Assembly (NCBI GenBank): GCA_963701665.1
Contig: OY969622.1
Coordinates: forward strand, 192,001-256,000
DNA: 64,000 nt
Direction: 5' to 3'
Origin: Candidatus Babeliales bacterium
GTDB lineage: Bacteria; Babelota; Babeliae; Babelales; JANWKD01
Below the pieces are notes generated by a model that saw only the letters and a list, made by a program, of their open reading frames with translations, was not told the origin of the DNA and made no database searches. The position numbers were made by a program, and so were the translations under genes. Shown piece after piece: positions 10,133 through 64,000 of the stretch. How positions within the stretch are numbered: the stretch's first letter is position 1; each line of letters opens with the position of its first letter.

Positions 10133-10657
10133 TTATTTTTTGAACAAATGGTTGAGTGTGGCATAGGTTGCTATGCTTAAGGTGCTAAAGAATAAAGCAG
10201 ATTTTATCGGGTTTCGTTGCAGTATTGACATCTTGCTTTCGTATTCTTTAATAGCATTATGTGCTGCACTCTGTTCTATAATTTCTTTTTCACTCATGTT
10301 AAGCAACTTTGTATAAGGAAGTGTATGTAGATCATTGGATGTAATTAAAATATATGCTTTGCCTTCGTTTTCATCTGTGAAATAATTTGTGTTACGGTCT
10401 AAGGTCAATTCATGTACATATGCATAACTTACCTCATCATCAGGGGCTTCCGCTGGAGCTAATCGCGCAAAAAGAATTTTTTGTGTATCTAATTTTACTT
10501 TTTTTTGTCGCGGTTTAAGGGATTGTTCTTCATCTTGCATACCATGTGTTGTTTGTGCGACTTGCATACAATGAGTTGACTGTGCAATAAAAGTGCCAAC
10601 AAAAAATACCATACATAAGTTCATTATTTTCATTGCTATCTCCTTAGTTAAAGACAA
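10133..10657 (-). CDS. Hypothetical exported protein with C-terminal hydrophobic helix
   Basis: Signal peptide then MQ; C-terminal TM-like segment. Confidence 0.6.
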   Translation of the reverse strand: MSLTKEIAMKIMNLCMVFFVGTFIAQSTHCMQVAQTTHGMQDEEQSLKPRQKKVKLDTQKILFARLAPAEAPDDEVSYAYVHELTLDRNTNYFTDENEGKAYILITSNDLHTLPYTKLLNMSEKEIIEQSAAHNAIKEYESKMSILQRNPIKSALFFSTLSIATYATLNHLFKK

Positions 10658-10714
10658 AAATATCGTGAAGAAATACTACCTTGAGCAGCTTTATAAGTTC
10701 AATATTTTGGTAAT

Positions 10715-11731
10715 TTAAGCATTTTCATCTGCAGCTAATGGCTGTATGATTTTTAAATTCCCTGTAAGTCTTGCTTGTGCTTTAAGAGCAGCTTGCTCCG
10801 ATAATGTATCTTCTAAAATAGTGGGTAAAGGCCGCGGTGAACCATTTTCTTCATCGGTGGTAGGGTCATCAAGATTTACATATCCTCCTACGCGGGGTGT
10901 GCCAGTTTGAGGCCGGGAAAGAGCGTTTCTGAATGATCCCTTTTTTCTTTTTTTCTTGTGCTTTTTCTCTTTTGTTATTTTTTCTTTGCCTTTGTTTCTT
11001 GACTCTTTTTCTTGCTCTTTTTCTTTAAAAAAATCTCTAGGTGAAGCAAGCTCTAGTGAATGTCTTTTGCGTGGGGAAATTTCTACTTGATTAAATGCAT
11101 CCATAAGAGAATCAAGTTTTTTATTAATATTATGTGAGTGATCATCCCTAGTATCGATACTCTTTACCACCGTTAATAGTAGTAGTCTGGTTTGCTTTAC
11201 GAATTCATCATTTTTTCTAAATTTTTCATTGATCCTTTTGATTGCTTTTTTTAACGATTCGCCCTCGAGTTCTTCATCCATAAAAGTTTCAACGACGAGT
11301 AATTCTGCATGCAAATCATTGATCTTGCGGTTATCAGGATTCAATGCTTGTAGTTCGCCTATAGAAAGCGCATTTGCTACAATTCTTTCATCCTGTTCCT
11401 GTAATCTTGCGTTAACTTTATGGCTCAATTGATTTAGATTAATTACATCATCGCGGATAGGTACAATTTCGGCTTTTGTCGCCGTCTTTTTGCCAAATAA
11501 CCATGATCGAATGCCGATATATGTTTCAATAAAACAACAGGTGCCAACTAAAAATGCTGGTATTTTTATTGCCAAGTGTGCTTCATCAAATTTTTTAATA
11601 CAATCCTGCCAGACTTGCGTAATCTGTTCACTTGAAAACGAATCCTTTAGGGTATCAAAAAACTGCATTCCTTGCAGTGATGATGCATATGAGAAAATGA
11701 TAAAAAACGATGCGATTAGAAATTTTTTCAT
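10715..11731 (-). CDS. Hypothetical exported coiled-coil protein with Lys-rich patch
   Basis: Signal peptide then MQ, TM segment, coiled coil, KKHKKKRKK. Confidence 0.7.
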   Translation of the reverse strand: MKKFLIASFFIIFSYASSLQGMQFFDTLKDSFSSEQITQVWQDCIKKFDEAHLAIKIPAFLVGTCCFIETYIGIRSWLFGKKTATKAEIVPIRDDVINLNQLSHKVNARLQEQDERIVANALSIGELQALNPDNRKINDLHAELLVVETFMDEELEGESLKKAIKRINEKFRKNDEFVKQTRLLLLTVVKSIDTRDDHSHNINKKLDSLMDAFNQVEISPRKRHSLELASPRDFFKEKEQEKESRNKGKEKITKEKKHKKKRKKGSFRNALSRPQTGTPRVGGYVNLDDPTTDEENGSPRPLPTILEDTLSEQAALKAQARLTGNLKIIQPLAADENA

Positions 11732-14177: not shown

Positions 14178-14867
14178 TTATTGGCGAGATTGCCACAAGG
14201 AATGGGCGAACCAACCGGATGCGACGCCCGCAACGCCCACAGAGCATGCGACTAAAGGGGTTTGATACCTCTTAAACCAGTTTTCCTTAGGCTTAATAGG
14301 TTCTGCTTGCAGTTGTTTACAACGCGAACATGATGTGGGCTCAGGTTCTTTGACTTCGAAACTTCGTAGGGGAGGATAATTGTTGTCATCTTCTTCTTCA
14401 GACGTTTCATCTTTGCGTGGTGGTAAAAGTCCCTTATACGTTACATACTGTGTTTTCATTTTTTTTTCTCTCTTTTTGCGAATCTTTTCTTGCTTCATTG
14501 CATGCTGAACTGCTCTTTTTTCCAACCGACGAATATCCCATTCTATGGTGGGTTCTTCAAGAGAATTGTTGAAATTTAGCCTGGGAAGAAATTGATCTAA
14601 GGTGCTATGTTCTTCAATAGGCGTTTGAGAAACAACTTTGATGGTTATAGTGCATTTATCGAGATGTTTAAACACTAAATCTACCGTTGTATCTTGGTGA
14701 GCAGCAATTTCTTGTACTTTGCCATATAAAAAATCTGAACAAAATGGAAAAAAATAAGCAGCTGTTTTAGGATTTAAGCGTGCGATATATTTTTTATTTG
14801 TTTGCATTGGCAATAGTGTACATGAGAAGAGAAGCGCGATTAATAATAAAAGCATTTTCTTTTTCAT
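14178..14867 (-). CDS. Hypothetical exported protein with C-terminal TM anchor
   Basis: Signal peptide then MQ; hydrophobic C-terminus. Confidence 0.7.
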   Translation of the reverse strand: MKKKMLLLLIALLFSCTLLPMQTNKKYIARLNPKTAAYFFPFCSDFLYGKVQEIAAHQDTTVDLVFKHLDKCTITIKVVSQTPIEEHSTLDQFLPRLNFNNSLEEPTIEWDIRRLEKRAVQHAMKQEKIRKKREKKMKTQYVTYKGLLPPRKDETSEEEDDNNYPPLRSFEVKEPEPTSCSRCKQLQAEPIKPKENWFKRYQTPLVACSVGVAGVASGWFAHSLWQSRQ

Positions 14868-14878
14868 GTTAGCCTTTC

Positions 14879-15322
14879 TTATTGTTTGTTGTTTTCAAAC
14901 CAATAAACGAGTGCAGCAGCCGTAAAAGCTCCTGTCGCAAAAGCTACCGCAGCGGTCGTACGGGGATATTTATCGATGTATGGCACTTCAAGAATGTATC
15001 TCTCATTGTCATTATCTATCTTGAGTTCTTGATGGCGCCAGCCAATTTGCATCATATATTTCCACACGCGGGTTAATTCTTTATCACGCAAACTGACATA
15101 CCACGTAGATCCTTGTGTAGTTGAAATGCGCTTAAAATTTTCTTGTTCAACCGGGAGCCAAATAGTTTCGTTGCCAAGACACGTTGAGCATAGAGCAATC
15201 TGAGTAGGATAAACTTCTGTTGGGGCAGCAGACTTTTTTTTGAACCAACTCATGGCTGAAGTATGGATAGGCGCAAGCAAAAATAAACTAAATAGTATGC
15301 ATAAAAATTGATTTTTCATCAC
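14879..15322 (-). CDS. Hypothetical exported protein with C-terminal TM anchor
   Basis: Signal peptide then MS; C-terminal Ala-rich helix. Confidence 0.7.
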   Translation of the reverse strand: MMKNQFLCILFSLFLLAPIHTSAMSWFKKKSAAPTEVYPTQIALCSTCLGNETIWLPVEQENFKRISTTQGSTWYVSLRDKELTRVWKYMMQIGWRHQELKIDNDNERYILEVPYIDKYPRTTAAVAFATGAFTAAALVYWFENNKQ

Positions 15323-15425: not shown

Positions 15426-16343
15426 TTACTGTTTACTGCCAAAATAACCAGCAGCAGTGCAAACAACTGCGGTAGTAAGCACCGCGCTTGCAAGAATTGT
15501 TTTTGGATGTCGAACAATGAGAGATTGTGTTTCGCGCATCTCCTGGTGGCCAATTATTATGCCTGCGCCAAAATACAGCAAATTGTTTTCATCTAAATCC
15601 CTTTTAATTTCCAGTGGCGGAATAATTCGCGTTTTTTCTTGCCCCATATGAAGCTCATCGGCAATTTGTTGTTGCTTGAATATACGAGCTAAGGCTGGTG
15701 CTAGTTCATCGATATTGAGAGCAACGTGCGTGTTATCTTTATTTTTAATATTTTTTCTATAATGTTTTACTCCTAAATCAACAGAATGCAATTCTACTTC
15801 GTTGCCATCGTGTCCCGGGGAATAGACTGAGATGGCGGTTGGTATTTCTTGCTGCCCTTTTAAAAATCCTGCGTGATGATACATCTTATTATTCAAGGAT
15901 ATAATCGTCTCAATTTCTTCTGGAATATTACATTGATTGTTGTTTTGTTGTGGATTTAATGCTTTGTCTTGCAATGTTGTAAAAAGGCGTTCAAAAAGGG
16001 GTCCTAATGTATTGATATCAAGTAAAATTTCAATTTCGCCACCGCCTTGGAGAAAAGCTTCACGGTTTAACTGAATACGATCCCAATTTTTTAATTCATG
16101 CTCTTGCGAATATATTTGGATACTTATTGAAGATACTTTTGGTTTTTTTTCATAACCAGGTTCATCATTGTTGACTGCTTTAATATCGTCTGGGGTGAAA
16201 ACCCAACTTGAGAATCCTCCCGTTGACATACGTAAATCACTTTCAGGAGCGACTTCTCCAACTGCTTCATCCATTGCGTCTAGGGTTGTAAAAGCGTTTG
16301 CAAACAAACCCCCCGCTATCACGATGAAAAAAAGTTTTTTCAT
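15426..16343 (-). CDS. Exported tail-anchored protein (paralog family member)
   Basis: Signal peptide then MD; shares IKA.NNDEPGY with 16356-16760 and other blocks with 17370-18491. Confidence 0.7.
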   Translation of the reverse strand: MKKLFFIVIAGGLFANAFTTLDAMDEAVGEVAPESDLRMSTGGFSSWVFTPDDIKAVNNDEPGYEKKPKVSSISIQIYSQEHELKNWDRIQLNREAFLQGGGEIEILLDINTLGPLFERLFTTLQDKALNPQQNNNQCNIPEEIETIISLNNKMYHHAGFLKGQQEIPTAISVYSPGHDGNEVELHSVDLGVKHYRKNIKNKDNTHVALNIDELAPALARIFKQQQIADELHMGQEKTRIIPPLEIKRDLDENNLLYFGAGIIIGHQEMRETQSLIVRHPKTILASAVLTTAVVCTAAGYFGSKQ

Positions 16344-16355: not shown

Positions 16356-16760
16356 CTATTTTTTTCCAGCGAGACCACGAATATAAAAATCGCGACTGAA
16401 GTCCTCAAATGTTTCTCGCAGTGCAACAGGAATTTTATTTGATTTTGCACTATTTGGCGTGTAGGATTCTTCTCGATATGCGTCGCAAAGCTTAGCAAAA
16501 ATTGGCAGTACCAGCTCAAGAGGAAGCTTGATGTGTTCTTGTCCCTGTTCTACGGAAAAATGTTTCTCATCTAAGGGGATACTAAGCGATGGATATTCAA
16601 CAATAGTAATAATCTTTTTAGGATTACTATCATAACCTGGTTCATCATTGTTAATGGCTTTAATGTTTGGACGGGCATTTTTTGTTTCCATCGCATCTAT
16701 TTTTGCAAAAACAGTTATCAATAAACTACCTAATGTGAAAATAAAGAAAAATTTTTTCAC
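16356..16760 (-). CDS. Exported protein, short paralog
   Basis: Signal peptide then ME; IKAINNDEPGY; no C-terminal anchor. Confidence 0.6.
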   Translation of the reverse strand: MKKFFFIFTLGSLLITVFAKIDAMETKNARPNIKAINNDEPGYDSNPKKIITIVEYPSLSIPLDEKHFSVEQGQEHIKLPLELVLPIFAKLCDAYREESYTPNSAKSNKIPVALRETFEDFSRDFYIRGLAGKK

Positions 16761-17369: not shown

Positions 17370-18491
17370 TTAATGTTTGTTGTCAAAGTAGCGCATAGCT
17401 ACAGCACAACCAAGTATTCCCGTTCCGAGAGTAAATGCCATCCATTTTTTTGGATGCTTTGCAAAAGTCGATTGTTCTTGTGCGGCAAGCTTGCGCCCTT
17501 CCGTGATACCGGCTTTCTTACCGTTGTCAAAGTGTGTTCTAAATGCACGTTCCGCATTGTTTTCGATGGACCATCCTCTTTTTCTTAACTCAACAAACAA
17601 TGGGGTTAACTCATCAACTTCTAGTTGCACTTCTTCTTGCCCATGTGCATCTTTATCTTGTTCATCCTCATCAATCACACCAAAATCTTCTTGTTTTAAT
17701 GTGATGCTCATAAGACGAACACCCGGTTCAAATATGCTGAGTCTGTAAGGGCGACGTACCACATCCGGATGTCTCGCTAACTCGTCCGATTTGGGTTTTA
17801 TAACTAAGTTTCCTTCTTCTCTCAGAGCCTCCAAAAAAGCCTCGATTTCTTCATCATCGAACCGGATTTCTTTGCGGCCGCGTGCGTTTTTATTTATATC
17901 TTCATCACTAATGTTCTGATAATGACGTGATTTTAATGTGACAAAATGCCAACAATCGCCTTCGCCACTCTTTCTGAAATAGTGCGAGCCAAATCTAATT
18001 CTGTAAGGCATTTTTGTTTCACTTTGACGTTCTGCGCCCTCATCGAATCCTTTTGTATGGCCCGCATGAAAAATTATATTATTATGGTCTGTTAATAGTT
18101 CGTTGATAGATTTAGGAATTATGGGTGATGCTTGGTCGAAAACTTCATCTTTGTTTTGAGTAAGAAGTGCCTCGAGCGTTGGTTTTAGTTCCACTGCACT
18201 AATTCTTATTTCTATTGTTTTATGCTCATCATGAGTTACTTCATGAAAATGTTTCTTGTTTAAAGCGATTGTGGCGCCGTTCAGCAATCCTTCAGTTTCG
18301 CCTGCATGATGAACAAAAAAAGAAATAGCAGTGGGAAGAAGATTGGGCACATCTTGTTCAGGTTGTCTATCTCTGAGCTCAGAGAGTGATGAGTCTGATG
18401 GCGATTTGTGCATTGCATTAATGCCATGAGGAATGTGAAATATGCCACCGAGTAACACGAGATTCAATACTTTTTTCATGGGATGTCTCAC
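17370..18491 (-). CDS. Exported tail-anchored protein with internal repeats (paralog)
   Basis: Signal peptide then MH; repeated PYR...TLK...G..E module; C-terminal TM. Confidence 0.7.
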   Translation of the reverse strand: MRHPMKKVLNLVLLGGIFHIPHGINAMHKSPSDSSLSELRDRQPEQDVPNLLPTAISFFVHHAGETEGLLNGATIALNKKHFHEVTHDEHKTIEIRISAVELKPTLEALLTQNKDEVFDQASPIIPKSINELLTDHNNIIFHAGHTKGFDEGAERQSETKMPYRIRFGSHYFRKSGEGDCWHFVTLKSRHYQNISDEDINKNARGRKEIRFDDEEIEAFLEALREEGNLVIKPKSDELARHPDVVRRPYRLSIFEPGVRLMSITLKQEDFGVIDEDEQDKDAHGQEEVQLEVDELTPLFVELRKRGWSIENNAERAFRTHFDNGKKAGITEGRKLAAQEQSTFAKHPKKWMAFTLGTGILGCAVAMRYFDNKH

Positions 18492-21063: not shown

Positions 21064-21375
21064 TTAATCCCTCTTGCGTTTAAGGATAGCATCGGTTTCT
21101 CTGCGTTTATTGTTTAGATAGGTAGCTGCGCAAAAAGTAACTGTGCCAAGTATCCACGGGACAAGTTCATTATCGGGACAACAAATTTTTCCTATGATAC
21201 CTGATGCAATACAAGGACCGCAGGTGTTGATCATATCTTCGCAGGAGGGGCCTTCATCATTGTCTGAGAAAATTTTGATTGGACTATAATGACATTTTTT
21301 TGTTGATTCGTGCATACCATGCAGTGTGCTGCTCAAAAATAGTAGTAAGAACAAGATCAATAAAAGAATATTCAT
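21064..21375 (-). CDS. Small Cys-rich exported membrane protein
   Basis: Signal peptide then MH, hydrophobic hairpin, ends KRKRD. Confidence 0.65.
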   Translation of the reverse strand: MNILLLILFLLLFLSSTLHGMHESTKKCHYSPIKIFSDNDEGPSCEDMINTCGPCIASGIIGKICCPDNELVPWILGTVTFCAATYLNNKRRETDAILKRKRD

Positions 21376-46115: not shown

Positions 46116-46300
46116 GAAAATTCTTCTTTTTCTTTAGCCCCTTTTTTTCTTTGGCCAGGCGCTTCTTCTTTTTCATCCCATGCATAATAAACATTACCAT
46201 CCTCTCCTTCCTCCATGCCAAAAAGATTTATGGTGCCCAGTAGTATTACTGCAAGAGTAAGAAGAATATTTTTTTTCATATAACTTCCTTTTTTGAACAA
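46004..46300 (-). pseudogene. Signal-peptide-bearing N-terminal fragment of the WD40 gene (frameshift)
   Basis: MKKNILL...LFGMEE; overlaps the downstream ORF in the -1 frame across an A6 run. Confidence 0.55.
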
Positions 46301-46351: not shown

Positions 46352-48169
46352 TCACTCGTTTTTTTGCTTTGGCAAAAGCATAAAAAGTGTGAGTTGTTTA
46401 TCTTTATAGGGCAGTTCTTGAAGGGCCATTATTGCGGTGTGATTTTTAGTGAGTTTTGTGATGGGTACATTTCCCCCTAGTGGAATCTCCCGAATATAAT
46501 TGCCACTTTCTGGATTCCAAACAAGTAGAGTTCCATCTTTATGCCCGGTCAATGCATATTGTTTATAACCAACAATGCTTAAGATGGGCATTAGTATTTC
46601 TCTGGTTCTTGTTTTTTTAAATTCCTGAACTATGTTTTTGTCTTTTTTCTCTTTACCTTTATTGTTAGATTTTTTTCCTTCTAGCGTGGATTCTTGCCAT
46701 ATTTCTAAATAACGCTGACGAGATAAAGAGACTAAAAAATTTGGTTGTACCTTCGCAAGTCCATCAAGAGAGCCTACATCGCTTTTGAGTGTTTGAAGAC
46801 ATTGTTCCTTAAGAAAATCCCAAATTTTAATCGATCCATCGCGAGAAGCTGAGGCAAGAAGATGCTGTTTGCCCATACCCGAAGGATTTTTCTTTGTTTC
46901 CCAGCATGGATTGTGTATGGTTCTGTGTAAAGTAACTAACGCTGTGACAGCATCAGTATGCCCAATCAACTTGCGTACTACTTGACCCTTATGATTGTCA
47001 ACAACAATTTTGCCGGATTTTTTGTCCCCTCTTTTTCCTCGGAAATAAAGTGTCATTGGTTGCTCTTCCCCTGCATCCGTCATAACTAAAAACCAACCAA
47101 CTAAGGCAGCCGTTGGAACATATCTAGGTTTTGTTGTAAGAACATGAATTGAAGGGTCCTTTTTCTTTTGAGCTGCCATATGATACCTAACTTTTGCATC
47201 AGTTGGTTTTTTAAGTATTTCAAATTCTTGCTTATTAACATCATGAAAAAAAATTCCTCGTCGAGTGGCAGCAATAAGCTGTGAACTATGTTTCGGTACC
47301 GTATAGCATACGATATCCTGTGGCAGCGTAAGGTGTAGCGGGTCATTTTCCCAAAATTCCTTGGTACGTTCATAATGAGCCTTAAGATCTCTAAGAGATT
47401 TACAAGAACTCTCAAGGAATCTTACCGAACGAGGGGTTTTAGTAGATCTGAGAGTAGCGCTGCTAAATTGTGAAAGGGTTCTATCAAGGGGAAGATAATC
47501 AGATTGCTTGTATTTACTCATAAGATCGCCCAGTTGTTGTTGAGTTTCAGGAGCAACATAAGGAACAATATAAGTATCGAAAATTGTGTTAAGCTCTTTA
47601 ATAAGTTTTTTTCCAATATCCTGCGCTTGAAAGTGTGTTTGATAAATTCTAATTATATTATTCCATAAATAACAAACAATTTTGGAAGAAGCATCAAGAT
47701 TGTTATAAAGAATAGTTATATATTGGTTGATTTGGTCTTGAGGACTTAAGCGAGATAATTGATCAATGAGTCTATTAAATTCATCGTAATATTCTCTAAT
47801 TTTTTTTTCTTGTGCGAGCTTCTCTAAACTTCTTATGAATTCATTAAAATCGGTAATTTCTTTTGTTGGATCCAATAATTCGGTATGCACATCTTCTTCG
47901 GTTAATAACAATGTGCTAACTTTTTTTTTATTTTTTTTACGACTTCTACTTTTTTTACGATTTTTGCGCTCGTCTTCTTCTTCACTTGTAGTAATAGGTT
48001 TTGCTGCTAATTTAAGTGCGTAGGTGATTTTTCTTTGCTCACCAGTGTCTTTATCGGTTTTTATGATTTCTATACTTTTAGTATTCATGCCAAAAAGAAT
48101 AGTGTTAAAAAGAAATGTTAGGATGCATAATCCGGTGAATATTTTTTTTTGTAAAAAAATGGGATTCAT
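46352..48169 (-). CDS. Exported WD40-repeat protein
   Basis: Signal peptide then MN; GHTDAVTAL...LASASRDGSIKIWD; basic patch. Confidence 0.85.
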   Translation of the reverse strand: MNPIFLQKKIFTGLCILTFLFNTILFGMNTKSIEIIKTDKDTGEQRKITYALKLAAKPITTSEEEDERKNRKKSRSRKKNKKKVSTLLLTEEDVHTELLDPTKEITDFNEFIRSLEKLAQEKKIREYYDEFNRLIDQLSRLSPQDQINQYITILYNNLDASSKIVCYLWNNIIRIYQTHFQAQDIGKKLIKELNTIFDTYIVPYVAPETQQQLGDLMSKYKQSDYLPLDRTLSQFSSATLRSTKTPRSVRFLESSCKSLRDLKAHYERTKEFWENDPLHLTLPQDIVCYTVPKHSSQLIAATRRGIFFHDVNKQEFEILKKPTDAKVRYHMAAQKKKDPSIHVLTTKPRYVPTAALVGWFLVMTDAGEEQPMTLYFRGKRGDKKSGKIVVDNHKGQVVRKLIGHTDAVTALVTLHRTIHNPCWETKKNPSGMGKQHLLASASRDGSIKIWDFLKEQCLQTLKSDVGSLDGLAKVQPNFLVSLSRQRYLEIWQESTLEGKKSNNKGKEKKDKNIVQEFKKTRTREILMPILSIVGYKQYALTGHKDGTLLVWNPESGNYIREIPLGGNVPITKLTKNHTAIMALQELPYKDKQLTLFMLLPKQKNE

Positions 48170-53706: not shown

Positions 53707-56265
53707 ATGAATAAAAATATAGTTTTTTTGATGTTTTTAACCTGTTTTACAGGTTTATTCGCTATGGAAGATCGTTCTAAACCTCAGTCTAATACCATTG
53801 AGCAAAGGCCGACACCATATCAATTTTTAGGTATAGATAAAACAGCAGAGGCAGGGGACATAAAGAAATCCTATGTTCAATTAGCAAAACAGTATCATCC
53901 TGATAAAGCTAAGGGTGATACAGCTGTGGCAGCAGAGTATTTCAAAGTAGTACAATACGCTTATGAAGCACTTACCAAAAACAATGCAATAAACACAGAG
54001 CATGCTAAAAATGATTGGCAAGATTGGGTCAATGAACCCGCAAATATGATGATTAAATCGGCGGCAGAAAAACTACAGGCTGAAATTAAACAAAATCTTG
54101 ATAATAATCAGAATTTGGTAACTATAAAAAAATTAATATTTGATGCGTGTACTTATTATGAGACGCATCTTTCGTGGGTTGATACGACAAGCCAAAAACT
54201 TTTAAAGCGTCTAATGATCGAAAATTATGTTGAACTAACAAGAAGAGTAATAAGAACTAACGATGCAGGTGCGCAAGGAGAAGTATATGAGGCATTCATA
54301 AGAATACGCCCTCATATAAACGATATTGAGGCAGACTTAAAAGAAATAGATAAGTTACTTGATGCATGTCGAGCAAAACGTGATGCGGGCAAAAAAAATC
54401 TTCAGCCAAAGTCGAATCAGACGAGTGTTGCTTTCATGGATTCTGGGGATCTTTATGCTATTTTGGAGATAAGCCCTCTTGCAAACCAAGAAGAAATAAA
54501 CAATGCCTTTCTAAAATTGCAGACAAAATATAAGCCTTATTCATTTGCAGAAGGATCGCAAGAACGTAAGCGAGCAGAATACCAATTTAAGCCGATCTGG
54601 GATGCATTTGATACATTGGGTAATAAACAAAGAAGAGCTATCTACGATAAAAAAAGATTAAAAGCATTTGATACTTCCGCACAAAATACAGAACAACCTT
54701 CGAGAAAAAGACCCTCAGAGAATGATGGAAAAAATGCTCGCCCTGAAAAATTCGCAAAGCAAGATAATACTCAAAAGTCTTCAAAAGATGACGAAAATAT
54801 AAAGAAATTAATAAATGCGATAAACAGTGAAAATAATGCCGTGGATAACTATATAACAAACATGGGACGCAGCGAAAATATTGAACTTAATCCCCATGAA
54901 TTTTTTGAAAAAATTTGTCAGCAATATAATAAAACATTGAAGTTTCTTACTGCTACTACAAAACATGCCGATTTTTTACAACAATATAAGGACCTTGCCG
55001 ATGTAATTAATGAAACAAGCAAAAACTTTTATAGTGCTGCCAATTTTGTATATGAAAAAGGCAAAGATAAGGGATGGTTCTTATATTCGCTTCAGAAAGC
55101 ATGTGAACTGAACGAGCTTGCATTACAGTGTGCAAAGTATTTGCAATCAATTGAAGGTGAAAAAATTATGGAGAGTTGCCGCAAGCAACACAATGTTTTT
55201 ATAAAATACTTAATTGATTTATACGAAAGTTTTGATTATTTAGAGCTGTTTTTTACTGATTTATCTATTCCAGTGCATTATCGTAATAATACATTCACCA
55301 TTTTAAAAGAAGATTGTAAAAAAGAGGAATTTTCAGTTTTGAAAGAAAAATTGCCTAAGCTTTCCTATAGCATCGCTGAACATTATTTTAACCAAGGATT
55401 ATATGAAGATGCAAAAAAACTGGTTATTGCTCTTATTCGAGGCAACATGACAAGAGACAGAACAAGGTTAAGAAAAAGCAAAGATTTATTAAATAAAATT
55501 AAAGCTGCGTCTGCAGCTAAAATGGAGCAAGAAAGTGTTTATTTCTTGAATCGGTTTGAAAATGATACTCACGCGCTGAGTAATGTAATTAGATCTTATA
55601 AAATTAATAAGTCTAATGATGAGCAAACGCTATTAGCAATTCGCAACAACTGCAAACAATATGTTGATTTCATTTGGTCGAATCGCGAGCAGACTCTTTC
55701 GCCTCAAACGTATACAAATATTCTGGATAATTGTATGCAGATCATGCATGATTTACAGGAAGCAAAGCTATTCTATCCTGAATGCATAGAGCTAGTATCC
55801 CTTTGTCTCAATTTCCCTTGGAAAAACCCAGAGATTCTTAAAGAAAGTATAGAGCCCATGAGTAATTATGCTCTTGGAGCGATACTTTCTGAAGTACAAT
55901 TCACACCAGAGGATTTGAAAGATGATAAAAAATTATCGTCACTCGCTCAGAAAATGCTTTCTGAAAATCAATGTAATTTTTTTGTTAGAACGTTAGGATA
56001 CATTCGTTCTCCGAATACCTATGAAAGTGCTACCAATGCTATTCTTAAATGTTACTTTGCTTTAGCCGAACAGTTGAGCGATCATGGTAATTATTCTGAT
56101 GCACTTTTAATGCTTGATACTGCGATGCTGCGATATCGCATGGGTAGTTTACGAGAAAATTTTGAGAGTTTAAAAGCTCAGGTATGCGTATTACAAGACT
56201 TGCAAAATCCAACTAGCTTTGATGAAGACGAATTATTAAAAGAACTGTTTGAACAACATAATTGA
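53707..56265 (+). CDS. Exported protein with two J-domains (first with HPD)
   Basis: Signal peptide then ME; PY.FLG...IKK.Y..LA..YHPDK; second J-like domain lacks HPD. Confidence 0.85.
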   Translation: MNKNIVFLMFLTCFTGLFAMEDRSKPQSNTIEQRPTPYQFLGIDKTAEAGDIKKSYVQLAKQYHPDKAKGDTAVAAEYFKVVQYAYEALTKNNAINTEHAKNDWQDWVNEPANMMIKSAAEKLQAEIKQNLDNNQNLVTIKKLIFDACTYYETHLSWVDTTSQKLLKRLMIENYVELTRRVIRTNDAGAQGEVYEAFIRIRPHINDIEADLKEIDKLLDACRAKRDAGKKNLQPKSNQTSVAFMDSGDLYAILEISPLANQEEINNAFLKLQTKYKPYSFAEGSQERKRAEYQFKPIWDAFDTLGNKQRRAIYDKKRLKAFDTSAQNTEQPSRKRPSENDGKNARPEKFAKQDNTQKSSKDDENIKKLINAINSENNAVDNYITNMGRSENIELNPHEFFEKICQQYNKTLKFLTATTKHADFLQQYKDLADVINETSKNFYSAANFVYEKGKDKGWFLYSLQKACELNELALQCAKYLQSIEGEKIMESCRKQHNVFIKYLIDLYESFDYLELFFTDLSIPVHYRNNTFTILKEDCKKEEFSVLKEKLPKLSYSIAEHYFNQGLYEDAKKLVIALIRGNMTRDRTRLRKSKDLLNKIKAASAAKMEQESVYFLNRFENDTHALSNVIRSYKINKSNDEQTLLAIRNNCKQYVDFIWSNREQTLSPQTYTNILDNCMQIMHDLQEAKLFYPECIELVSLCLNFPWKNPEILKESIEPMSNYALGAILSEVQFTPEDLKDDKKLSSLAQKMLSENQCNFFVRTLGYIRSPNTYESATNAILKCYFALAEQLSDHGNYSDALLMLDTAMLRYRMGSLRENFESLKAQVCVLQDLQNPTSFDEDELLKELFEQHN

Positions 56266-56302: not shown

Positions 56303-59239
56303 ATGAATAAAAATATAGCTTTTTTGATGTTTTTATCCTGTTTTACAGGGTTATTTGCTATGGAAGAGCGCCCTCGGGCCCAGTTCGTTGCATTGACCCC
56401 TTATGATTTTTTAGGCCTCGACAAAACAGCAAAACCTGAAGATATAACAAAAAGTTACAGAAAATTAGCATCTGTAATTCATCCCGATAAATCTAAAAAG
56501 CCCATGGCTGAAGAGTGCTTCAAAGCAATTTGTAATGCTCATGAAGTGCTTGGCGACGATAAAGTGAAAGCTTATTACGATGAGCAGGATTGGCAAGGTT
56601 GGACAAATCCTGCATCCAGTACTGTAGTGGATAGTGAAGTTATGAAGATACATGCCCGTCAAGAAGCACTTGAAGTACATATAAGAAATAATCCGTGGGA
56701 CTTAGCAACAATAATGAAAATGACGAATGAAGCATGTAATTATTATGAGAAGTATTTTTCAAGAGCTAATGAAGAAGGTCAAAAACTTTTAAAGAATCTT
56801 GTGATAACAAATCGCCTTGAGTTAGCAAAAATGATGATTGGTACTAATGATACTAATGAACAGCAACAAGCGAGAGAGCAGCTTGAAAGAATACGAATTC
56901 ATGCAACTGAAATTCAATCGCCATTTCTTCAAGAAATAAATCAATTATTATCACGCTATATTCCCTCGCCGAGTCCGAAGCAGAAACAATCAAGTTATAC
57001 AGATTTCGATCTAATTTGTACTGCATATGAAAGTTTGAGATTTAGACGTACAGCCTTGGATAAGAAAGAATTAGAGATATGTAGTCAGATTTTAGGTGTA
57101 AGCTGTCGTGCACATATTAAAACAATAGAAGCCGCTTATAGGCATTTGGTTAGTCTAGGCGACTTATTGGCATCGAATTTATCGCTACAGCAAGTGCAGG
57201 CGTTACAATCAATGCGTGCGGCAAAAACAGGAACAGCAAATCGATCCGAAAATATGCGAGATCCTTACGAGATCTTAGGGATACGTAACGGTTCAGATTA
57301 TAAGGAAATTGACGCTGCATATCAGGAAAGAAGAATATCGCTATATCTTAAACTTAGCGAATTGAAGAAAGTCTCGGATGCATATACGGTAACTCAAAAT
57401 GAAATAGCCCAAATTGAAGAAGCGTATCGTTATTTAAGAAATCAAAAAACGAGAAATATACATGAAAAAGACACTAGTGGATCTGATCAAAAACAAAATA
57501 TTAATGATACCATACGCAAATATCAAGAGCAGCTTGGAAAACTTTACGGTCAGCGTGCCAATTGGGTGACTATACGAAAATTAGTTGATGAATCTTATGA
57601 GTATTATAGCAATGTTCTCAAAAATCATGGGCCTTTTGAGATGATAAAGGATCATATAGCAAATAATTATGCGAACCTTATACGAGAAGGTCTTAGATTA
57701 CATGAGTTTAATATGTGCTATGTAATTGAGCAAGGTTGGATTAAGAAGATAATCGAGAATACTGAAATCGAATCGGCTAATCGTTCTTATGTAGCAATGC
57801 TAATGCGTGAATATGAACGTAAAAATAAAAATGCTGGATCATATGATAAGCAGAGTTTTGCAAACAGTAATGCACCTGAAGTTAAAGATGATGTACAAAT
57901 CAAAAAACAAATTGTTGATACCATAAATGACTATCAAGAAAGATTAGATAGGCTTTTTAAACACAATCCTCAGGATAATTTTGAAGTTATAAAAACATTA
58001 GTGAATGAATCTTATGGTAAATATATGGAGATTCTTGAAACATGTTTTGATGCGGGACTCCGAGCAAAGATCAAGGGTTGCATATCTGATAATTATACAC
58101 AGCTTATAGTGGTAGGTCTTAACGAACCGCTTGAGGCTCTCATGCGCTGTGCGATAGAGCAGGTATGGTTTGACCGTGTATTGGAAAATGCGCAAATAGG
58201 TTCAAAAAATTATAATTTCGTGAAAGGATTGCTAGATAATCATGGGTCTGGTACACGAACAGAGCAGCAGCCAAGAGATAAACAAAGTGTTCGGTCTCAA
58301 AAGATCAAATCTCAAGAGATTTTAAAAAAAGTTAAAGAGTATCAGGAACGACTTGACGCCTTTTTTCAGGACATCACTCTTATATATAATAAAAAATCAT
58401 CTAATATGGATGAAATAAAATCATTAGTTTATGAGTCTCACGATTATTATAGATCCATTTTAGCATTAGCGTCATCGGAACATGCACATGTTCGTAACAT
58501 GCTTAGAAAACATTTATCAAATAATTATTCGAGACTTGTAAAAAAAGGCCTTTTAGGCTTTGGGATTCAATTGGATTGGGTACAATTGGGAATTGAATAT
58601 TCTGAAGTAGGAACCCCTAATTATATCTATTTAAAACAGATAGAGGCTGAATGCTTTAAGCAACAAAATAACACGAAAAAACGATCGTTCAGCGAGACAA
58701 ATAGCGATACAGATGAGGAAAACGAAACAGAAGAATCTGAAAATGTAGGTCAGCCTCAACAAAAACAAGCAAAAGTTGAACGTGAAAAAGAACAAGAACA
58801 TACAGCATCGGATCAAAATGAGGCTGCAAACAAGCATAGAAGTCCTCATTATTCTTCTATACGACATCAAATTGAAACGATACATGGATTGTTGGATAAA
58901 GGGTTAGATTCAGTTTCTGCTAAGGATGCTGTTATCTCAAGTCCGGGCTATTTTAATAATTTATTACAAAACATACCATCTCGTGATGATCGTAAAAGCG
59001 CTGCTATTGAGATACTTGGACTTTATCAAAAAGTAGTTGAAAAATTGATAGATACGGGCGCCGAGAATACTGCGTGCATTATAATGGATGCTGCAGACGC
59101 ATTAATTAAGAGAGAAATACACAGTGCGCGCGATAGATGCGCTCTGTTAAAAGCTCAAGTATCGGTAATGCAGGGCGTACCAAATTCTGCGGATGAGATA
59201 GATTCATTATTGGATGCGGTGCTTGAAGAGCATAGTTGA
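56303..59239 (+). CDS. Exported protein with an HPD J-domain plus degenerate J-like domains
   Basis: IHPDK; DPYEILG...EI.AAY; internal helical repeats. Confidence 0.85.
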   Translation: MNKNIAFLMFLSCFTGLFAMEERPRAQFVALTPYDFLGLDKTAKPEDITKSYRKLASVIHPDKSKKPMAEECFKAICNAHEVLGDDKVKAYYDEQDWQGWTNPASSTVVDSEVMKIHARQEALEVHIRNNPWDLATIMKMTNEACNYYEKYFSRANEEGQKLLKNLVITNRLELAKMMIGTNDTNEQQQAREQLERIRIHATEIQSPFLQEINQLLSRYIPSPSPKQKQSSYTDFDLICTAYESLRFRRTALDKKELEICSQILGVSCRAHIKTIEAAYRHLVSLGDLLASNLSLQQVQALQSMRAAKTGTANRSENMRDPYEILGIRNGSDYKEIDAAYQERRISLYLKLSELKKVSDAYTVTQNEIAQIEEAYRYLRNQKTRNIHEKDTSGSDQKQNINDTIRKYQEQLGKLYGQRANWVTIRKLVDESYEYYSNVLKNHGPFEMIKDHIANNYANLIREGLRLHEFNMCYVIEQGWIKKIIENTEIESANRSYVAMLMREYERKNKNAGSYDKQSFANSNAPEVKDDVQIKKQIVDTINDYQERLDRLFKHNPQDNFEVIKTLVNESYGKYMEILETCFDAGLRAKIKGCISDNYTQLIVVGLNEPLEALMRCAIEQVWFDRVLENAQIGSKNYNFVKGLLDNHGSGTRTEQQPRDKQSVRSQKIKSQEILKKVKEYQERLDAFFQDITLIYNKKSSNMDEIKSLVYESHDYYRSILALASSEHAHVRNMLRKHLSNNYSRLVKKGLLGFGIQLDWVQLGIEYSEVGTPNYIYLKQIEAECFKQQNNTKKRSFSETNSDTDEENETEESENVGQPQQKQAKVEREKEQEHTASDQNEAANKHRSPHYSSIRHQIETIHGLLDKGLDSVSAKDAVISSPGYFNNLLQNIPSRDDRKSAAIEILGLYQKVVEKLIDTGAENTACIIMDAADALIKREIHSARDRCALLKAQVSVMQGVPNSADEIDSLLDAVLEEHS

Positions 59240-59265: not shown

Positions 59266-61008
59266 ATGAATAAGAATATACTTTTTTTAATTATTTTAAG
59301 TTGCTTTACCGGTTTATTTGCTATGGAAGAGCGCCAACCATCGCATGGACAAGGAGTCGATTTATATCTACTTTTAAGAGTTAACAATGATGCTACGACC
59401 CAGGATATAGATACGGCTTACAAAGCACTTGAACATCGAGAAATAATGTCAGGATTTAAAACTGTAGATTATTTTTTCAATGTTGTTCGAGCTTATAAAA
59501 TTTTATCTAATGATAAGTTGAGAAATATCTATGATAACCGTGGCCCTAGCGCTGCAGATGTTGCTTTATATGCTACAGGATATCCGCACGCAACCGATTT
59601 GGCTGTTCGAACTAGAATAGCGAAGGATCAAGATGATCTTAGATCAAAAGACGGTAATGCGTTGCTGAAGCTTATAAAAGAAGTAAATGCTTACTATCGA
59701 GGACACTTGTTTATGGGGACCGCCAAGTTATGTGATACATTGCGTGATTGTATAGCACAAAATTACTATAATCTTGCACATGGTTTATTCTGTAATGTTA
59801 GATATAATCATGATGCAGTGCTAGAGTACATCAAGCAAGGGTTGAATTTTGCATTACCTGAGAGTCCTGCTTCTAATGCCTTAAAAGCTTTCGCCAATAA
59901 GTTACAAAAGCCAACAGAGTCTAAAACAAAGTCGCCGAGAGTTGATCTTCAACAATGGCATCCATCTACAAATATTCAACAAGAAGCGGCTCTTGATCTT
60001 CTAGATGATACTAATGCAAAAATTTTAAATGTAGTAGAAGATAGAGAAGCTTTCGAAACGCCAAAAGTGTTTTGTAAAAAAATATACGAATACTTAGATG
60101 CATACGCGAACTATACTATGCCAGCTTCATTGGAAAAGGATCGGAATTTTTCAAGTAAGCGTCATCTATGCAGTGCATTAACACATAGCGCAGCTGAAAA
60201 ATTACTTGGAATGTCAAAAGACACCATTTGGCATATCTATGGATTACAGCATGCAAAAATATTATGCCAAAAGGCATCAGATCATACTTTGCGTTTACCA
60301 AATATCAAACGGTATAGAAATACAAAGCAAACTATAGAAAGTAGTATTGTAACCATACAAGGATCTTTAGATGCTTGGTATACGCAAGGTACTTGTCTAG
60401 TTAATTTCTTTATAAGCCCTGAAATACCGCTAGATCTTTGTAAAGATGTATGGGCAACTATGATCAATGATATTGCAAGATTTAGTGTTGAAACACAAGA
60501 TGTAATGCTCGATTGTACCTATCAATTGGCACGACGATGTTTGAATGAACATTATTATGATGAAATTATAGATATAAATTTAAAAGTCTTGGCAAATCAG
60601 TATATACAATCTAGGGCTGATTTTGTTGCTCAATATCGAGAACTTATCGATAGTGCGCTCAATAACCTTGAACAACAATGCAGTACATTTTTCAAAGCGT
60701 TCCATGGTGAATTTCTCATGAGGTATGACAACAAGGATTCATCGGAAGCTTTAGCAGACATTATTCAAAATTATTTTACAATGCAATATATGCCATCACA
60801 ATCCATTGAAACAATGTTTGGTGATATCTTTTTACTATATACACGGCGGCTTGAACCCGAAAAAAAATGGGATAAAATGTACGAGTTAGCATGGCGCTGC
60901 TTAACTTTTAATAGATGGCCTGCGCATATTCAGAAACATGAACTTTTTACAACCATGCGCAAATTTATTACTAACTATGAAGATCTAAAAGCCAAAGGGC
61001 TTATGTAA
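59266..61008 (+). CDS. Exported protein with degenerate J-domain
   Basis: LY.LL.V..DAT..DI..AY...AYKILSN..LR.IYD, no HPD. Confidence 0.8.
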   Translation: MNKNILFLIILSCFTGLFAMEERQPSHGQGVDLYLLLRVNNDATTQDIDTAYKALEHREIMSGFKTVDYFFNVVRAYKILSNDKLRNIYDNRGPSAADVALYATGYPHATDLAVRTRIAKDQDDLRSKDGNALLKLIKEVNAYYRGHLFMGTAKLCDTLRDCIAQNYYNLAHGLFCNVRYNHDAVLEYIKQGLNFALPESPASNALKAFANKLQKPTESKTKSPRVDLQQWHPSTNIQQEAALDLLDDTNAKILNVVEDREAFETPKVFCKKIYEYLDAYANYTMPASLEKDRNFSSKRHLCSALTHSAAEKLLGMSKDTIWHIYGLQHAKILCQKASDHTLRLPNIKRYRNTKQTIESSIVTIQGSLDAWYTQGTCLVNFFISPEIPLDLCKDVWATMINDIARFSVETQDVMLDCTYQLARRCLNEHYYDEIIDINLKVLANQYIQSRADFVAQYRELIDSALNNLEQQCSTFFKAFHGEFLMRYDNKDSSEALADIIQNYFTMQYMPSQSIETMFGDIFLLYTRRLEPEKKWDKMYELAWRCLTFNRWPAHIQKHELFTTMRKFITNYEDLKAKGLM

Positions 61009-62941
61009 GCATCGGCTTTAATAGTTAGGGACGAAATTTTAAAATTTATGGAGGGGATAAAAAAATGACTATTTCAATAAAGAACATTATTTTTTTAGGT
61101 ATTTTGAGTATTTCATGCGGTATGCCATTGTTTGGTATGGAAGAACGCCGACCATTGCCTGCACAAGAAGTTAGTTTATATACACTATTAAAACTCGATA
61201 ATAATGCGACTGAAGAGCAAATAAAAACTGCATTTACAAATCTTCAAAATGCCCAAATAGAATCGGGCTTTAAAGATGAGGAGAATTTCTTTAGTGTTGC
61301 ACTTGCGTATAAAATTTTATCAAATAATGAGCTGAGAGAATGCTATGATAACTATGGTTATATCGTAGCCTATAATGATTTACGCATGAAAGGATATTCA
61401 CAGAAAGTTGATTTGGAGGTTAAGGCCAAAATAGAAGAATATCAAAATGTACTTCAGAAATCATTGATGAGCATGGATACTTTAACAATACAAATTGATA
61501 CAAAAAAAGTAAATGATTTCTACCAAGCAAATTTGTTTAAGGGCACCCCTGAACTATGTGATACATTGCGCGATTATATAGCACAAAATTACTATAATCT
61601 GGCGCGTGGTTTATATGCTGTTAAATATAAGCGTAATCAAGTGTTAGAATACATTAAGCAAGGATTGAATTTTGCATTAGCTGAGAGTTATTTTTCTAAT
61701 GAATTAAAAGCTCTTCAAAATGAGTTGCAAAATCAAACAAAGTCTCAAACAGAGTTATCACCAGTTGGGTTTCAATGGCACCAATCTCGAGAATCCAAAG
61801 CTTATGTAGATAATCAACGAGAAATAGTTCTTAATTTTCTAAATGATACTAATGCAAAAGTTTTAAATGCATTAAAAGATAAAGAAGCTTTCGAAACGCC
61901 AACAACGTTTTGTAAAAAAATATATGAATACTTAGATGCATTAGCGAACTATGATGTGCAAGTGGATTTAAAAAATGATCTTGTTTTTTTACGTAAGCGC
62001 TATATGTGCGGTGAATTTACCTATAAAGCAGCCGAAAAATTACGTAAAATGTCACAAGGCACCATCTGGTATAGCTATGGATTACAGCATAGAAAAATAT
62101 TATGCCAAAAGGCATTAGGTCATATTTTGTGTTTACAAAATCTCAATAAATATAGAAATACAAAGCGTAGTATAGAAAGCGATATTGTAAAGATACAAGG
62201 ACTTTTAGATTCATGGTATACGCAGGGTGGCTGTTTGCTTGATTTCTTTATAAATCCTGAAATACCGCTAAATCTTTGTAAAGATGTATGGGCAACTATG
62301 ATCGATGATATTGGAAGATTTAGCGTTGAAACACAAGATGTAATGCTCGATTGTACCTATCAATTGACACGACGATGTTCGAGTGAGCATTATTATGATG
62401 AAATTATAGATATAAGTTCAAAAGCCTTGGCAAATCAGTATATACAATCTAGGGTTGATTTTGTTGCTCGATATAAACACCTTATCGATAGTATATTCAA
62501 TGAAGTCTTTGATACGTGCCGCCGTGGATTGCGCACAAAGCATGAAAACAAAGTTTCAGCTGAGACTTTGGCTGACCATATTATTCAAAATTATTTTACA
62601 ATCCAACATATGTCATCACAATCTATCAAAACAATGTTTGAGGATATTCTTTTAATATATACGCAGCGGCTTGAACCTGAAATGAAATGGGATAAAATGT
62701 ATGAATTAGCAAAAAGCTGCTTAACTTTTGATAAGTGGCCTCAACACATTCAGATACATAGACTTTTTATAACGATGCGTACGTTTAAGGCTCGGTATGA
62801 AACGTTAAAAGCTCGAGGGCGTATATAAGCATCGGCTTTAATAGTTAGGGACGAAATTTTAAAATTTATGAGGGGGATAAAAAAAATGACTATTTCAATA
62901 AAGAACATTATTTTTTTAGGTATTTTAAGTATTTCATGCGG
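61006..62941 (+). repeat. ~115-bp direct repeats at 61006-61120 and 62826-62941
   Basis: Near-identical intergenic region plus signal-peptide coding sequence. Confidence 0.9.
61065..62828 (+). CDS. Exported protein with degenerate J-domain, close paralog of previous gene
   Basis: Same J-like pattern; long near-identical central block. Confidence 0.8.
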   Translation: MTISIKNIIFLGILSISCGMPLFGMEERRPLPAQEVSLYTLLKLDNNATEEQIKTAFTNLQNAQIESGFKDEENFFSVALAYKILSNNELRECYDNYGYIVAYNDLRMKGYSQKVDLEVKAKIEEYQNVLQKSLMSMDTLTIQIDTKKVNDFYQANLFKGTPELCDTLRDYIAQNYYNLARGLYAVKYKRNQVLEYIKQGLNFALAESYFSNELKALQNELQNQTKSQTELSPVGFQWHQSRESKAYVDNQREIVLNFLNDTNAKVLNALKDKEAFETPTTFCKKIYEYLDALANYDVQVDLKNDLVFLRKRYMCGEFTYKAAEKLRKMSQGTIWYSYGLQHRKILCQKALGHILCLQNLNKYRNTKRSIESDIVKIQGLLDSWYTQGGCLLDFFINPEIPLNLCKDVWATMIDDIGRFSVETQDVMLDCTYQLTRRCSSEHYYDEIIDISSKALANQYIQSRVDFVARYKHLIDSIFNEVFDTCRRGLRTKHENKVSAETLADHIIQNYFTIQHMSSQSIKTMFEDILLIYTQRLEPEMKWDKMYELAKSCLTFDKWPQHIQIHRLFITMRTFKARYETLKARGRI

Positions 62942-64000
62942 CATATCATTATTTGGTATGGAAGAACGCCGGCCGACGGAAGCGGTTAGTTTATATGAAT
63001 ATTTAAGCGTTAAGAATGATGCTACTGCTCAGGATCTGGATATGGCTTACAAAGCACTTGAAGATGAGGAAATAAGATCGGGATTTAAAACTTTGGATTA
63101 TTTTTTCGACGCTGTTCAAGCTTATAAAATTTTATCGGATAATGAGCTGAAACAAGTATATGATCAGCATGGCTATGCATCAGCATATAATCAATTGATC
63201 CTTAAAGGCTATCCTCAAAAAATTGATGAGGATGTGCAGAGCCGGATGAAAAAATATCAATATGAACTTAAAAATAATCCGAAAGATACAGTTTCCTTTC
63301 AAGATAGTACAAAAAAGGTGAATGCATACTATCAAGCACAATTGTTTATGGGCACTCGAGCCTTATGCAATGAACTGCGCAGAGTTATAGCGCAAAACTG
63401 CTATGATCTTGCGCGTTTTCTTTATGGTATTCAATTGTGTAGACACATACGTGCCTACGAAGTACAGCAAGGCATTCAAATATGCGCCTATATTGACGAA
63501 GGATTACGTTTTGCTCTATCCGATAGCCCTCTTGTGCGTGAGTTAGCAAGTTTAAGAAAAAAAATTACTGATCGGGCAGAACAAAGCATGAAAAAGATCG
63601 AAGATGGGAAGGGTATATTGGTTATACCAAGAAAAAACTTTTATATCTATGAATCTTCTGAAATCAAAAAACGTAAAATAAAGGAAAAGGATGATACAAA
63701 AAAAGTTGCTCGTAAACAGAAACAGAGCAAATCTCCACGGCTTGAAAAAGTAGATGATGAACAAAAAAATAAAGCAAAAACATCATTCTCAGATAAACTA
63801 AAAATAATGGGATTATTGGAAAATAACAATAAAAATCTTGCTTATATTCTAGAAAATATGCCCCCTGCGTGGACACCTAAGATGCTTTTTGAAAAAATAT
63901 GTGAAGTTTCGGAGCGACGCGATAATAATGATGATACAATGAATTTATTGCAACATGATCCTGATATTGTACGTGCCCGTTTTATAGGTGGCCAGTTACT
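62886..64000 (+). CDS. Fifth exported J-like protein, truncated by window end
   Basis: MTISIKNIIFLGILSISCGISLFGMEERRPTEAVSLYEYLSVKNDATAQDLDMAYKAL...AYKILSD. Confidence 0.8.
   Translation, partial: MTISIKNIIFLGILSISCGISLFGMEERRPTEAVSLYEYLSVKNDATAQDLDMAYKALEDEEIRSGFKTLDYFFDAVQAYKILSDNELKQVYDQHGYASAYNQLILKGYPQKIDEDVQSRMKKYQYELKNNPKDTVSFQDSTKKVNAYYQAQLFMGTRALCNELRRVIAQNCYDLARFLYGIQLCRHIRAYEVQQGIQICAYIDEGLRFALSDSPLVRELASLRKKITDRAEQSMKKIEDGKGILVIPRKNFYIYESSEIKKRKIKEKDDTKKVARKQKQSKSPRLEKVDDEQKNKAKTSFSDKLKIMGLLENNNKNLAYILENMPPAWTPKMLFEKICEVSERRDNNDDTMNLLQHDPDIVRARFIGGQL

Follow-up and report, generated by a model that had tools for sequence, protein, structure and literature searches.

Why should some 21 mostly unrelated secreted proteins, encoded within a single stretch of DNA, carry methionine (Met) exactly at the point where the signal peptide is expected to be removed? 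This question was raised by the initial annotation of a 64,000-nucleotide stretch (positions 192,001 to 256,000 of contig OY969622.1; hereafter the window) from a member of the Babeliales (Dependentiae/Babelota), of which the cultured members parasitize protists obligately. The source genome (G000 in the following) is a single contig of 1.337 Mb, with 37% G+C and 93.6% completeness. Orphans constitute the majority of proteins in this phylum, and signal peptides are carried by up to 44% of the proteins, the value for Chromulinavorax, which has two membranes (PMC6561590; here and below, papers are cited for the passages available to us). Babela massiliensis encodes 126 ankyrin proteins, 79 of them with a signal peptide, grows inside a vacuole, and has a type II system as the sole secretion system detected (PMC4378268). 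As described below, Met at the first mature position (+1) is a real and strong rule in part of the Babeliales, and it is specific to a class of cargo.

For the 1252 gene models in the gene set of G000, cleavage sites were called with three home-made predictors blind to Met: a fixed rule for positions -3 and -1, a matrix trained by expectation-maximization (EM) with position +1 masked, and a matrix of upstream positions only, the last of which is not fully independent because its columns were taken from the EM training. The fixed rule assigned a +1 Met to 117 of 430 signal-like proteins (as compared with Met in 3 at -1, 5 at +2 and 7 at +3), the EM-trained matrix to 132 of 395 secreted proteins, and the upstream-only matrix to 113 of 381 (as compared with 4 at -1, 7 at +2 and 11 at +3). 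The background frequency of Met in G000 is 1.9%, and the comparison with background, which the initial annotation had itself set as a test, is thus in good agreement with its claim. Since some Met sites were missed by these home-made predictors by 1-7 residues, as judged by eye, the true share of Met is probably higher. Within the window, all 21 junctions are present as originally written; the upstream-only model, which scored 20 of them (gene 21064-21375 being outside the gene set), placed the cut exactly before Met at 17, and 4-7 residues ahead of Met at the other three (the paralogues at 15426, 16356 and 17370).

The Met-class sites show the features of Sec and signal peptidase I substrates, i.e., a basic n-region, a hydrophobic core and small residues at -3 and -1, and the -1 residue of the 132 proteins in the EM set is A in 58, S in 29, G in 26, C in 12, P in 6 and Y in 1. 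Lipoprotein (signal peptidase II) identity was considered and rejected, because the +1 residue is Met and Cys, where present, is located at -1; LspA exists in the genome. The 132 proteins fall into 103 families, and Met is also at +1 in 81 of 267 singleton secreted proteins, indicating that family expansion is not the cause and that the proteins are indeed mostly unrelated. Chromosomal clustering of the Met genes is mild, with 59 adjacent pairs against 43.7 +/- 4.4 in shuffles. Met is also at +1 in 15 of the 44 secreted proteins having one further membrane segment. A search for nuclear-localization-like motifs downstream of Met gave no enrichment (p 0.09-0.38). As controls, +1 Met was found in none of 24 secreted proteins from mostly Firmicute loci (fixed rule) and, by either predictor, in none of 56 signal-bearing ankyrin proteins of other organisms; 5 of 5 close homologues in the same ankyrin control do have +1 Met (fixed rule).

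For identification of the proteins that carry Met, a Pfam scan was made of all 395 proteins confidently predicted to be secreted, and the cargo classes were tabulated by hand. Among the Met proteins, 34 gave a Pfam match: 19 ankyrin, 7 WD40-type, 4 J-domain, 2 AAA, 1 GH1 and 1 BamA, the Met site of BamA being uncertain (posterior 0.55). Matches were also obtained for 93 non-Met proteins, including 18 of interaction type (12 ankyrin, 2 AAA, UCH, RING, Macro and MavL-like), 71 enzymes and envelope proteins (including OmpA, Skp, M23, M15, amidase, Prc, FKBP, thioredoxins, and glycosyl- and methyltransferases) and 4 coiled-coil proteins, the last of which were left out of the cargo table. Met is thus present in 32 of 50 ankyrin, WD40, J-domain and other interaction-type proteins and in only 2 of the 73 classed as enzymes or envelope proteins (Fisher p 2e-14, a value inflated by non-independent paralogues), indicating a bias of Met toward effector-like cargo. 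In some of the non-Met proteins (2 of the 18 of interaction type and 2 M48 proteins among the 71), a small residue followed by Met occurs a few residues downstream. Among the 268 secreted proteins for which Pfam gave no match, 98 carry Met, as do 27 of the 38 signal-bearing ankyrin genes of G000 when judged by eye. The claim that envelope-type proteins lack Met holds for the M48 protein in the window, but not for a six-gene cluster elsewhere, one GH1 protein and, if its uncertain site is accepted, the BamA protein; the proteins labeled in the window as outer membrane proteins gave no match to Pfam or NCBIfam, so that this label is provisional. The six-gene cluster (L089:18758-19630 and L090 from base 1) includes two members matching Pfam M48, and a small residue followed by Met was seen by eye in all six, after different signal peptides.

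Apart from this classification, several individual proteins are of note. The secreted AAA protein encoded by L131:17445-19136 (position 1049952 of G000) belongs to the Met class and contains the N-terminal domain of ATAD3, and beyond three near matches its named matches are eukaryotic ATAD3-type proteins; because wrapping by mitochondria is reported for Chromulinavorax, the ATAD3-like protein may be regarded as a candidate mitochondrion-directed effector. Signal-like N-termini without Met were found on normally cytoplasmic enzymes, namely glutamine synthetase, GDP-mannose dehydratase, superoxide dismutase and a radical SAM protein (L083:5682-7067, L135:11591-12718, L085:508-1299 and L111:4230-5255), and likewise on STELLO- and RXYLT1-like glycosyltransferases.

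The residue following Met is also strongly biased. At +2 of 113 Met-class proteins in G000, we found E in 57, Q in 16, D in 14, N in 6, H in 5, K in 5, G in 3, V in 2, R in 2, and T, I and W in 1 each. E/D/Q/N therefore accounts for 93 of 113, as compared with 84 of 213 for the other secreted proteins of G000, while small residues are found in 6 of 113 against 78 of 213 and hydrophobic residues in 2 against 33; the subsets E/D/N and E/Q/D account for 77 and 87 of the 113, respectively. The bias holds within the family of the source genome (f1), two relatives of which have E/D/Q/N in 34 of 41 Met proteins. In addition, codon use after +1 Met looked raised for Asp GAC only, found in 7 of 14 cases, as compared with 27 of 245 after internal Met, these being small numbers from G000.

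The range of the rule was examined in 30 relatives, from 19 of which 12-172 kb each was read, partly picked for ankyrin genes. Within family f1, +1 Met was found in 13 of 49 secreted proteins of G001, which belongs to the same genus as G000, and in 25 of 52 of G003. In other families the counts are 13/46 (G022), 10/27 (G028, with 11/13 for ankyrins), 3/15 (G018), 6/43 (G008), 4/31 (G009), 1/26 (G014) and 0/14 (G006). Outside f1 the pooled count is 43 of 308 at +1, against 3-9 at neighboring positions, and thus +1 Met recurs patchily across the order Babeliales. One relative in which +1 Met is rare (G020) contains a run of ankyrin genes without any signal peptide (L218), for which a different export route or an internal use is possible. 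For Babela massiliensis, the rows of supplementary file 9 of PMC4378268 were judged by eye. A small residue followed by Met is present in each of the first 10 ankyrin rows; among 10 later rows, 6 lack a signal and 4 have one, with Met in 3 of these. Met is also present in the rows shown for F-box (2/2), WD40 (3/3) and Ulp1-AAA (2/2) proteins, and in none of the 4 proteins with a cleavable-looking signal among 9 envelope rows. These supplement rows indicate that the cultured species follows the Met rule. Searches for outgroups among symbionts of protists yielded none by translocase in the class of locus L051 (399 genomes) and generic ankyrin matches only by plasmid; when metagenomes were scanned with GspC, 2 loci were obtained.

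The signals of phytoplasma effectors end in a similar junction. PF12113, the SVM signal, is a phytoplasma motif present on SAP11 and SAP54 (PMC8026896). It matches 22 of 201 genomes of the Acholeplasmatales, the order of a Mariniplasma locus, all 22 being 0.4-0.9 Mb in size and taken to be phytoplasmas, and in the 20 high-scoring of 238 matches (16 genomes) the +1 residue is Met in 20 of 20, followed by N in 8, E in 6, D in 4 and G in 2. These 20 matches represent one independent case, because they belong to a single homologous family and were picked by a model likely including the Met. As in the Babeliales, a Sec signal is followed by Met-Asn, Met-Glu or Met-Asp on proteins bound (in the Babeliales presumably bound) for the host. 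The SVM signals, however, are all homologous, have a length of about 32 residues and belong to bacteria without a cell wall, while the Babeliales signals are mostly 17-27 residues long and mutually unrelated, and PF12113 had no match in G000 nor among the 395 secreted proteins. The word Met is absent from the passages of PMC8026896 on the SVM signal available to us; other authors may well have commented on this residue of SVM signals before.

Compared with other known systems, the +1 Met of the Babeliales works like the Q-rule of Bacteroidetes and resembles the cleaved end of Plasmodium PEXEL/HT proteins, and lacks the defining properties of both as well as membership in the SVM family. The Q-rule is likewise a lineage-wide fixed +1 residue of signal peptidase I substrates, linked to stability of the mature protein (PMC5837995, PMC10653852). 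There, however, Gln is cyclized by a bacterial enzyme and proteins of all compartments are involved, while in the Babeliales the residue is Met and the cargo is effector-like only; Gln is at +1 in 27 of 395 proteins of G000, and the cargo split described above is the opposite of cargo independence. The mature N-terminus of PEXEL proteins is x-E/Q/D, to be compared with E/Q/D at the second mature residue in 87 of 113 in G000, and E/D/Q/N in just 21 of 46 outside f1. An N-terminus made by cleavage is present on effectors of Plasmodium, a vacuole-dwelling parasite (PMC10653839, PMC3567231), and is predicted on the effector-like proteins of the Babeliales. PEXEL is cut by plasmepsin V after RxL, with +1 free and with a demonstrated role in export, while the Babeliales end has Met at +1 and a putative role in export; RxL precedes the predicted cut in 0 of 132. 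N-end-rule control of bacterial toxins inside the host cytosol is reported (PMC3755998, PMC2518864), which is a precedent for an influence of the first residue on what becomes of a secreted bacterial protein in a eukaryotic cell; those cases are single toxins, while the Babeliales pattern is proteome-scale, with about 100 families. Finally, in eukaryotic NatB-type N-termini Met is likewise kept before Asp, Glu, Asn or Gln (PMC11735805), the Met being the initiator Met at the host ribosome, and in the Babeliales an internal Met predicted to be exposed by a bacterial peptidase.

No description of the +1 Met pattern was found in the titles and beginnings of abstracts of the full-text-searchable literature, a scope outside which lie subscription papers on Dependentiae and phytoplasma genomics, and the word methionine is absent from the main text of PMC6561590, PMC4378268 and PMC5837995 as available to us.

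Among the explanations offered at the outset, mimicry of host N-termini is the best, and we give it about an even chance; by this explanation, with the same chance, a Met-acidic/amide N-terminus lets effector-like proteins escape the N-degron pathways of the host. After Sec export and the predicted cut by signal peptidase I before Met, the proteins would be carried into the protist host by the type II system or vesicles, and in the host cytosol the Met-E/D/Q/N end would be spared by both N-degron ligases and Met aminopeptidase, and hence be stable. An acidic early mature region suits Sec, and Met-E/D/Q/N keeps that region acidic. A protein arriving after translation misses co-translational acetylation, and for such a protein Met-E/D/Q/N may be the remaining safe class, as basic, bulky, acidic and amide first residues, unacetylated small ones (in human cells) and Met followed by a hydrophobic residue would act as degrons and Met followed by a small residue would be trimmed. 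According to PMC11735805, R/K/H/F/W/Y/L/I are primary and D/E/N/Q/C convertible N-degrons, unacetylated G/A/S/T/C are degrons in human cells, unacetylated Met followed by a hydrophobic or basic residue is targeted by UBR proteins, Met is removed only ahead of small residues, signal peptidases create Arg/N-degrons, and non-acetylated NatB-type termini have no known ligase contact, NatB itself being co-translational. The small and hydrophobic residues avoided at +2 are the very classes trimmed or degraded according to the same source. Acetylation by host NatB may follow, and the argument does not require it. In favor of this explanation are also the bias of Met toward ankyrin, WD40, J-domain, AAA and orphan proteins, the sharing of Met between homologues (see below), the Babela rows and the convergent junction of the SVM signals. 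The claim that these termini are NatB substrates thus stands as far as the match to the pattern in 93 of 113, and is weakened outside f1.

Several observations weigh against N-degron evasion. Outside f1, E/D/Q/N is at +2 in 21 of 46 Met proteins, with small residues in 12 and hydrophobic residues in 6, and in Babela ankyrins it is in 8 of 13. Several ankyrin-rich relatives show little or no +1 Met in the parts read (0/10 for ankyrins of G008, 0/24 for G024 and 3/47 for G020). Effector-like proteins without Met show no preference for other stable residues, the first residue of 7 of the 11 Met-less ankyrins being a destabilizing one (K, Q, I, W, N or Y), and C19 deubiquitinases are without Met in both genomes (0/1 in G000 and 0/3 in Babela). 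The 20/20 figure for SVM signals is a single event, with matches chosen by a model probably containing the Met. The degrons for small first residues were described, in the passages available, from human cells, while the hosts are protists, and each step by which the sequence would lead to cleavage, delivery and stability is inferred.

The sharp cargo split could also be expected if the Met-acidic end were an address for separation of host-bound cargo from envelope proteins, read by the type II system, during loading of vesicles or by a translocon of the vacuole membrane, much as the initial annotation had suggested in proposing a sorting signal; this reading, the main rival and not mutually exclusive with N-degron evasion, we consider rather unlikely. 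It accounts for why Met is specifically needed, and not just any stable residue. Mature N-termini direct export in Plasmodium (PMC10653839, PMC3567231), and growth of Babela in a vacuole means that there is a second membrane to cross (PMC4378268). Parts of a type II system are present in G000, i.e., GspC, two secretins, GspL/M-like genes between the secretins (named by eye) and two GspE-type ATPases, including a type II cluster with two long secretins at L081:6365-15771; a search of the genome (93.6% complete) detected no TolC, FlhA-type (type III secretion/flagellar), VirB4 or type VI sheath family. On the other hand, 2-3 secretins, mostly as a close pair, are present in 30 of 30 relatives whether Met is common or rare, and Met is missing from the secreted deubiquitinases and from a RING protein, all of which need contact with host ubiquitin. 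Phytoplasmas have no outer membrane, so that a type II address cannot explain the Met in their SVM signals, where the same terminus occurs with no second export step. The sorting signal is thereby weakened as an obligatory one. A bacterial enzyme recognizing or modifying +1 Met, such as a specialized signal peptidase or an exported acetyltransferase comparable to glutaminyl cyclase, is improbable in our estimate. G000 does carry lepB (signal peptidase I) as a tandem pair (911619-913409; L124) and two GNAT proteins with signal-like N-termini, and the -1 residues of the Met class include unusual ones (Pro in 6 and Cys in 12 of 132); however, the non-Met class has Pro and Cys at -1 as well (7 and 12 of 263), and the periplasm has no acetyl-CoA. 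The copy number of lepB (1-3 in relatives) does not track Met, G024 having several matches with 0/24 and G008 one match with 6/43, and a dedicated peptidase or secretin was rejected in the absence of any link between copy number and Met frequency.

That Met is a relic or by-product, namely an old start codon left after signal fusion, part of a spreading signal-plus-Met cassette, or a residue setting the cleavage register, also seems improbable, if slightly less so than an enzyme. In its favor, three gene pairs share near-identical signal peptides and Met-Glu on mature parts without a BLAST match, the ATAD3-like Met protein has eukaryotic best matches, and SVM signals are a shuffled cassette. 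In G000, however, the identity between signal peptides is the same for unrelated Met proteins (15.1%) as for others (15.0%), and one spreading cassette was rejected, as 3 of 8582 pairs have at least 70% DNA identity, all close neighbors in one gene array. Codon use before the +1 ATG is like that before internal Met, by which a DNA motif or Kozak-like context was also rejected, and envelope proteins share the peptidase yet lack Met. Families with signal-bearing enzymes (GH1, C11) carry Met in some members only; in these and at the window paralogue at 16842, Met has been gained or lost. Conservation was tested with 45 non-independent homologue pairs having Met in one member (median identity 40%). 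Met is common to both members in 22 of 45 (35 of 45 when a site shift is allowed), while positions -5 to +3 agree in 12-20 and positions +4 to +8 in 10-13 of the 45, and internal Met columns in 92 of 416; the strict conservation excess of +1 Met over its close neighbors is modest. Least probable is that the +1 ATG is a second translation start for a signal-less cytoplasmic isoform, a further proposal of the initial annotation. The ATG is in frame behind a U-rich stretch, and about 39% of G000 gene models lack a strong Shine-Dalgarno match. A Shine-Dalgarno match, however, precedes 0 of 132 +1 ATGs, as compared with 93 of 132 real starts, 303 of 5934 internal ATGs and 7 of 263 non-Met +1 codons, and without a ribosome-binding site an alternative start is unlikely. 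GTG/TTG is not in excess at +1 (4 of 56 V/L/I codons), a start would not need the exact +1 position seen in the counts of 4, 113 and 7 at -1, +1 and +2, and the second residue of native starts is mostly K, S, N, L, A or I, with E in 10 of 267, unlike the residue after +1 Met, a difference that also argues against a relic.

The junctions in the window are given below as signal end/mature start. On the reverse strand, secreted proteins with the site placed by the upstream-only model are encoded by 10133..10633 (THC/MQ; Met codon 10565-10567; no Pfam or NCBIfam match), 10715..11731 (LQG/MQ; 11666-11668; Met retained in the G001 homologue), 14178..14867 (LLP/MQ; 14805-14807) and 14879..15319 (TSA/MS; 15251-15253). 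The three genes for which the model cut earlier are 15426..16343 (LDA/MD; 16272-16274), 16356..16760 (IDA/ME; GTG start; 16689-16691) and 17370..18479 (INA/MH; 18411-18413), the last of which has a paralogue (16842-17291) with Ser in place of Met. The small secreted protein of 21064..21375 (LHG/MH; 21313-21315; also reverse) was positioned by hand count. The upstream-only model also placed the sites of a secreted basic protein on the forward strand (25982..26641; VVA/MD; 26057-26059) and, on the reverse strand, of 27997..28362 (NFG/MD; 28297-28299), two small proteins, 30299..30619 (TFC/ME; 30560-30562) and 30772..31104 (TFC/MH; 31045-31047), and 37776..39131 (LKS/ME; 39054-39056), followed by 40903..41445 on the forward strand (SLG/MD; 40966-40968) and a short secreted open reading frame (ORF) on the reverse strand (46004..46279; LFG/ME; 46214-46216). 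The last, of 91 residues, overlaps the start of a 464-residue ORF lying in another frame; the region (44721-46279) has the appearance of a single gene split by a frameshift, or of a misassembly. A secreted WD40 protein (46352..48169, reverse; LFG/MN; 48086-48088) was supported by the model and Pfam. Forward-strand genes between 53707 and 64000 form an array of five secreted J-domain-type proteins, with near-identical signal peptides and with mature parts lacking mutual BLAST matches: 53707..56265 (LFA/ME; 53764-53766), 56303..59239 (LFA/ME; 56360-56362) and 61065..62828 (LFG/ME; 61137-61139), each supported by the model and Pfam/NCBIfam; 59266..61008 (LFA/ME; 59323-59325), with a weak J-domain match (model and domain scan); and 62886..64000 (LFG/ME; 62958-62960), a paralogue of the 61065..62828 gene extending beyond the window end, with its site likewise placed by the model. 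Met-class proteins at 30299-31104 and 14178-18479 have long C-terminal hydrophobic stretches, as judged by eye, which recall chlamydial inclusion-membrane proteins. ORFs at 6317-7258, 24141-24536, 33878-34690 and 35334-36788 are presumably IS110-, IS200- and IS5-like transposases and a serine recombinase, and adjoin what we take to be a toxin-antitoxin-like cluster.

With regard to annotation, gene callers can begin at the +1 Met and thereby hide the signal peptide, as seen in instances in G000. The +1 Met may serve as a one-residue predictor of effectors, by which the 98 G000 proteins without a Pfam match become candidates. Babela in Acanthamoeba offers a cultured system for asking how Sec cargo is distinguished from proteins of the envelope, and whether bacterial secretomes are molded by the N-degron pathways of their hosts. 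Since effector delivery through Sec means that the initiator Met cannot be kept, Sec-delivering bacteria may repeatedly have evolved a second Met at the cut, giving a eukaryote-like N-terminus; at a chance that we put just short of even, such an 'M-rule' would mark a few hundred host-bound proteins per genome in the Babeliales, maybe serving as a type II address too, and would have arisen independently in phytoplasmas. The occurrence of a parallel pattern in phytoplasma-type signals suggests that the rule is general.

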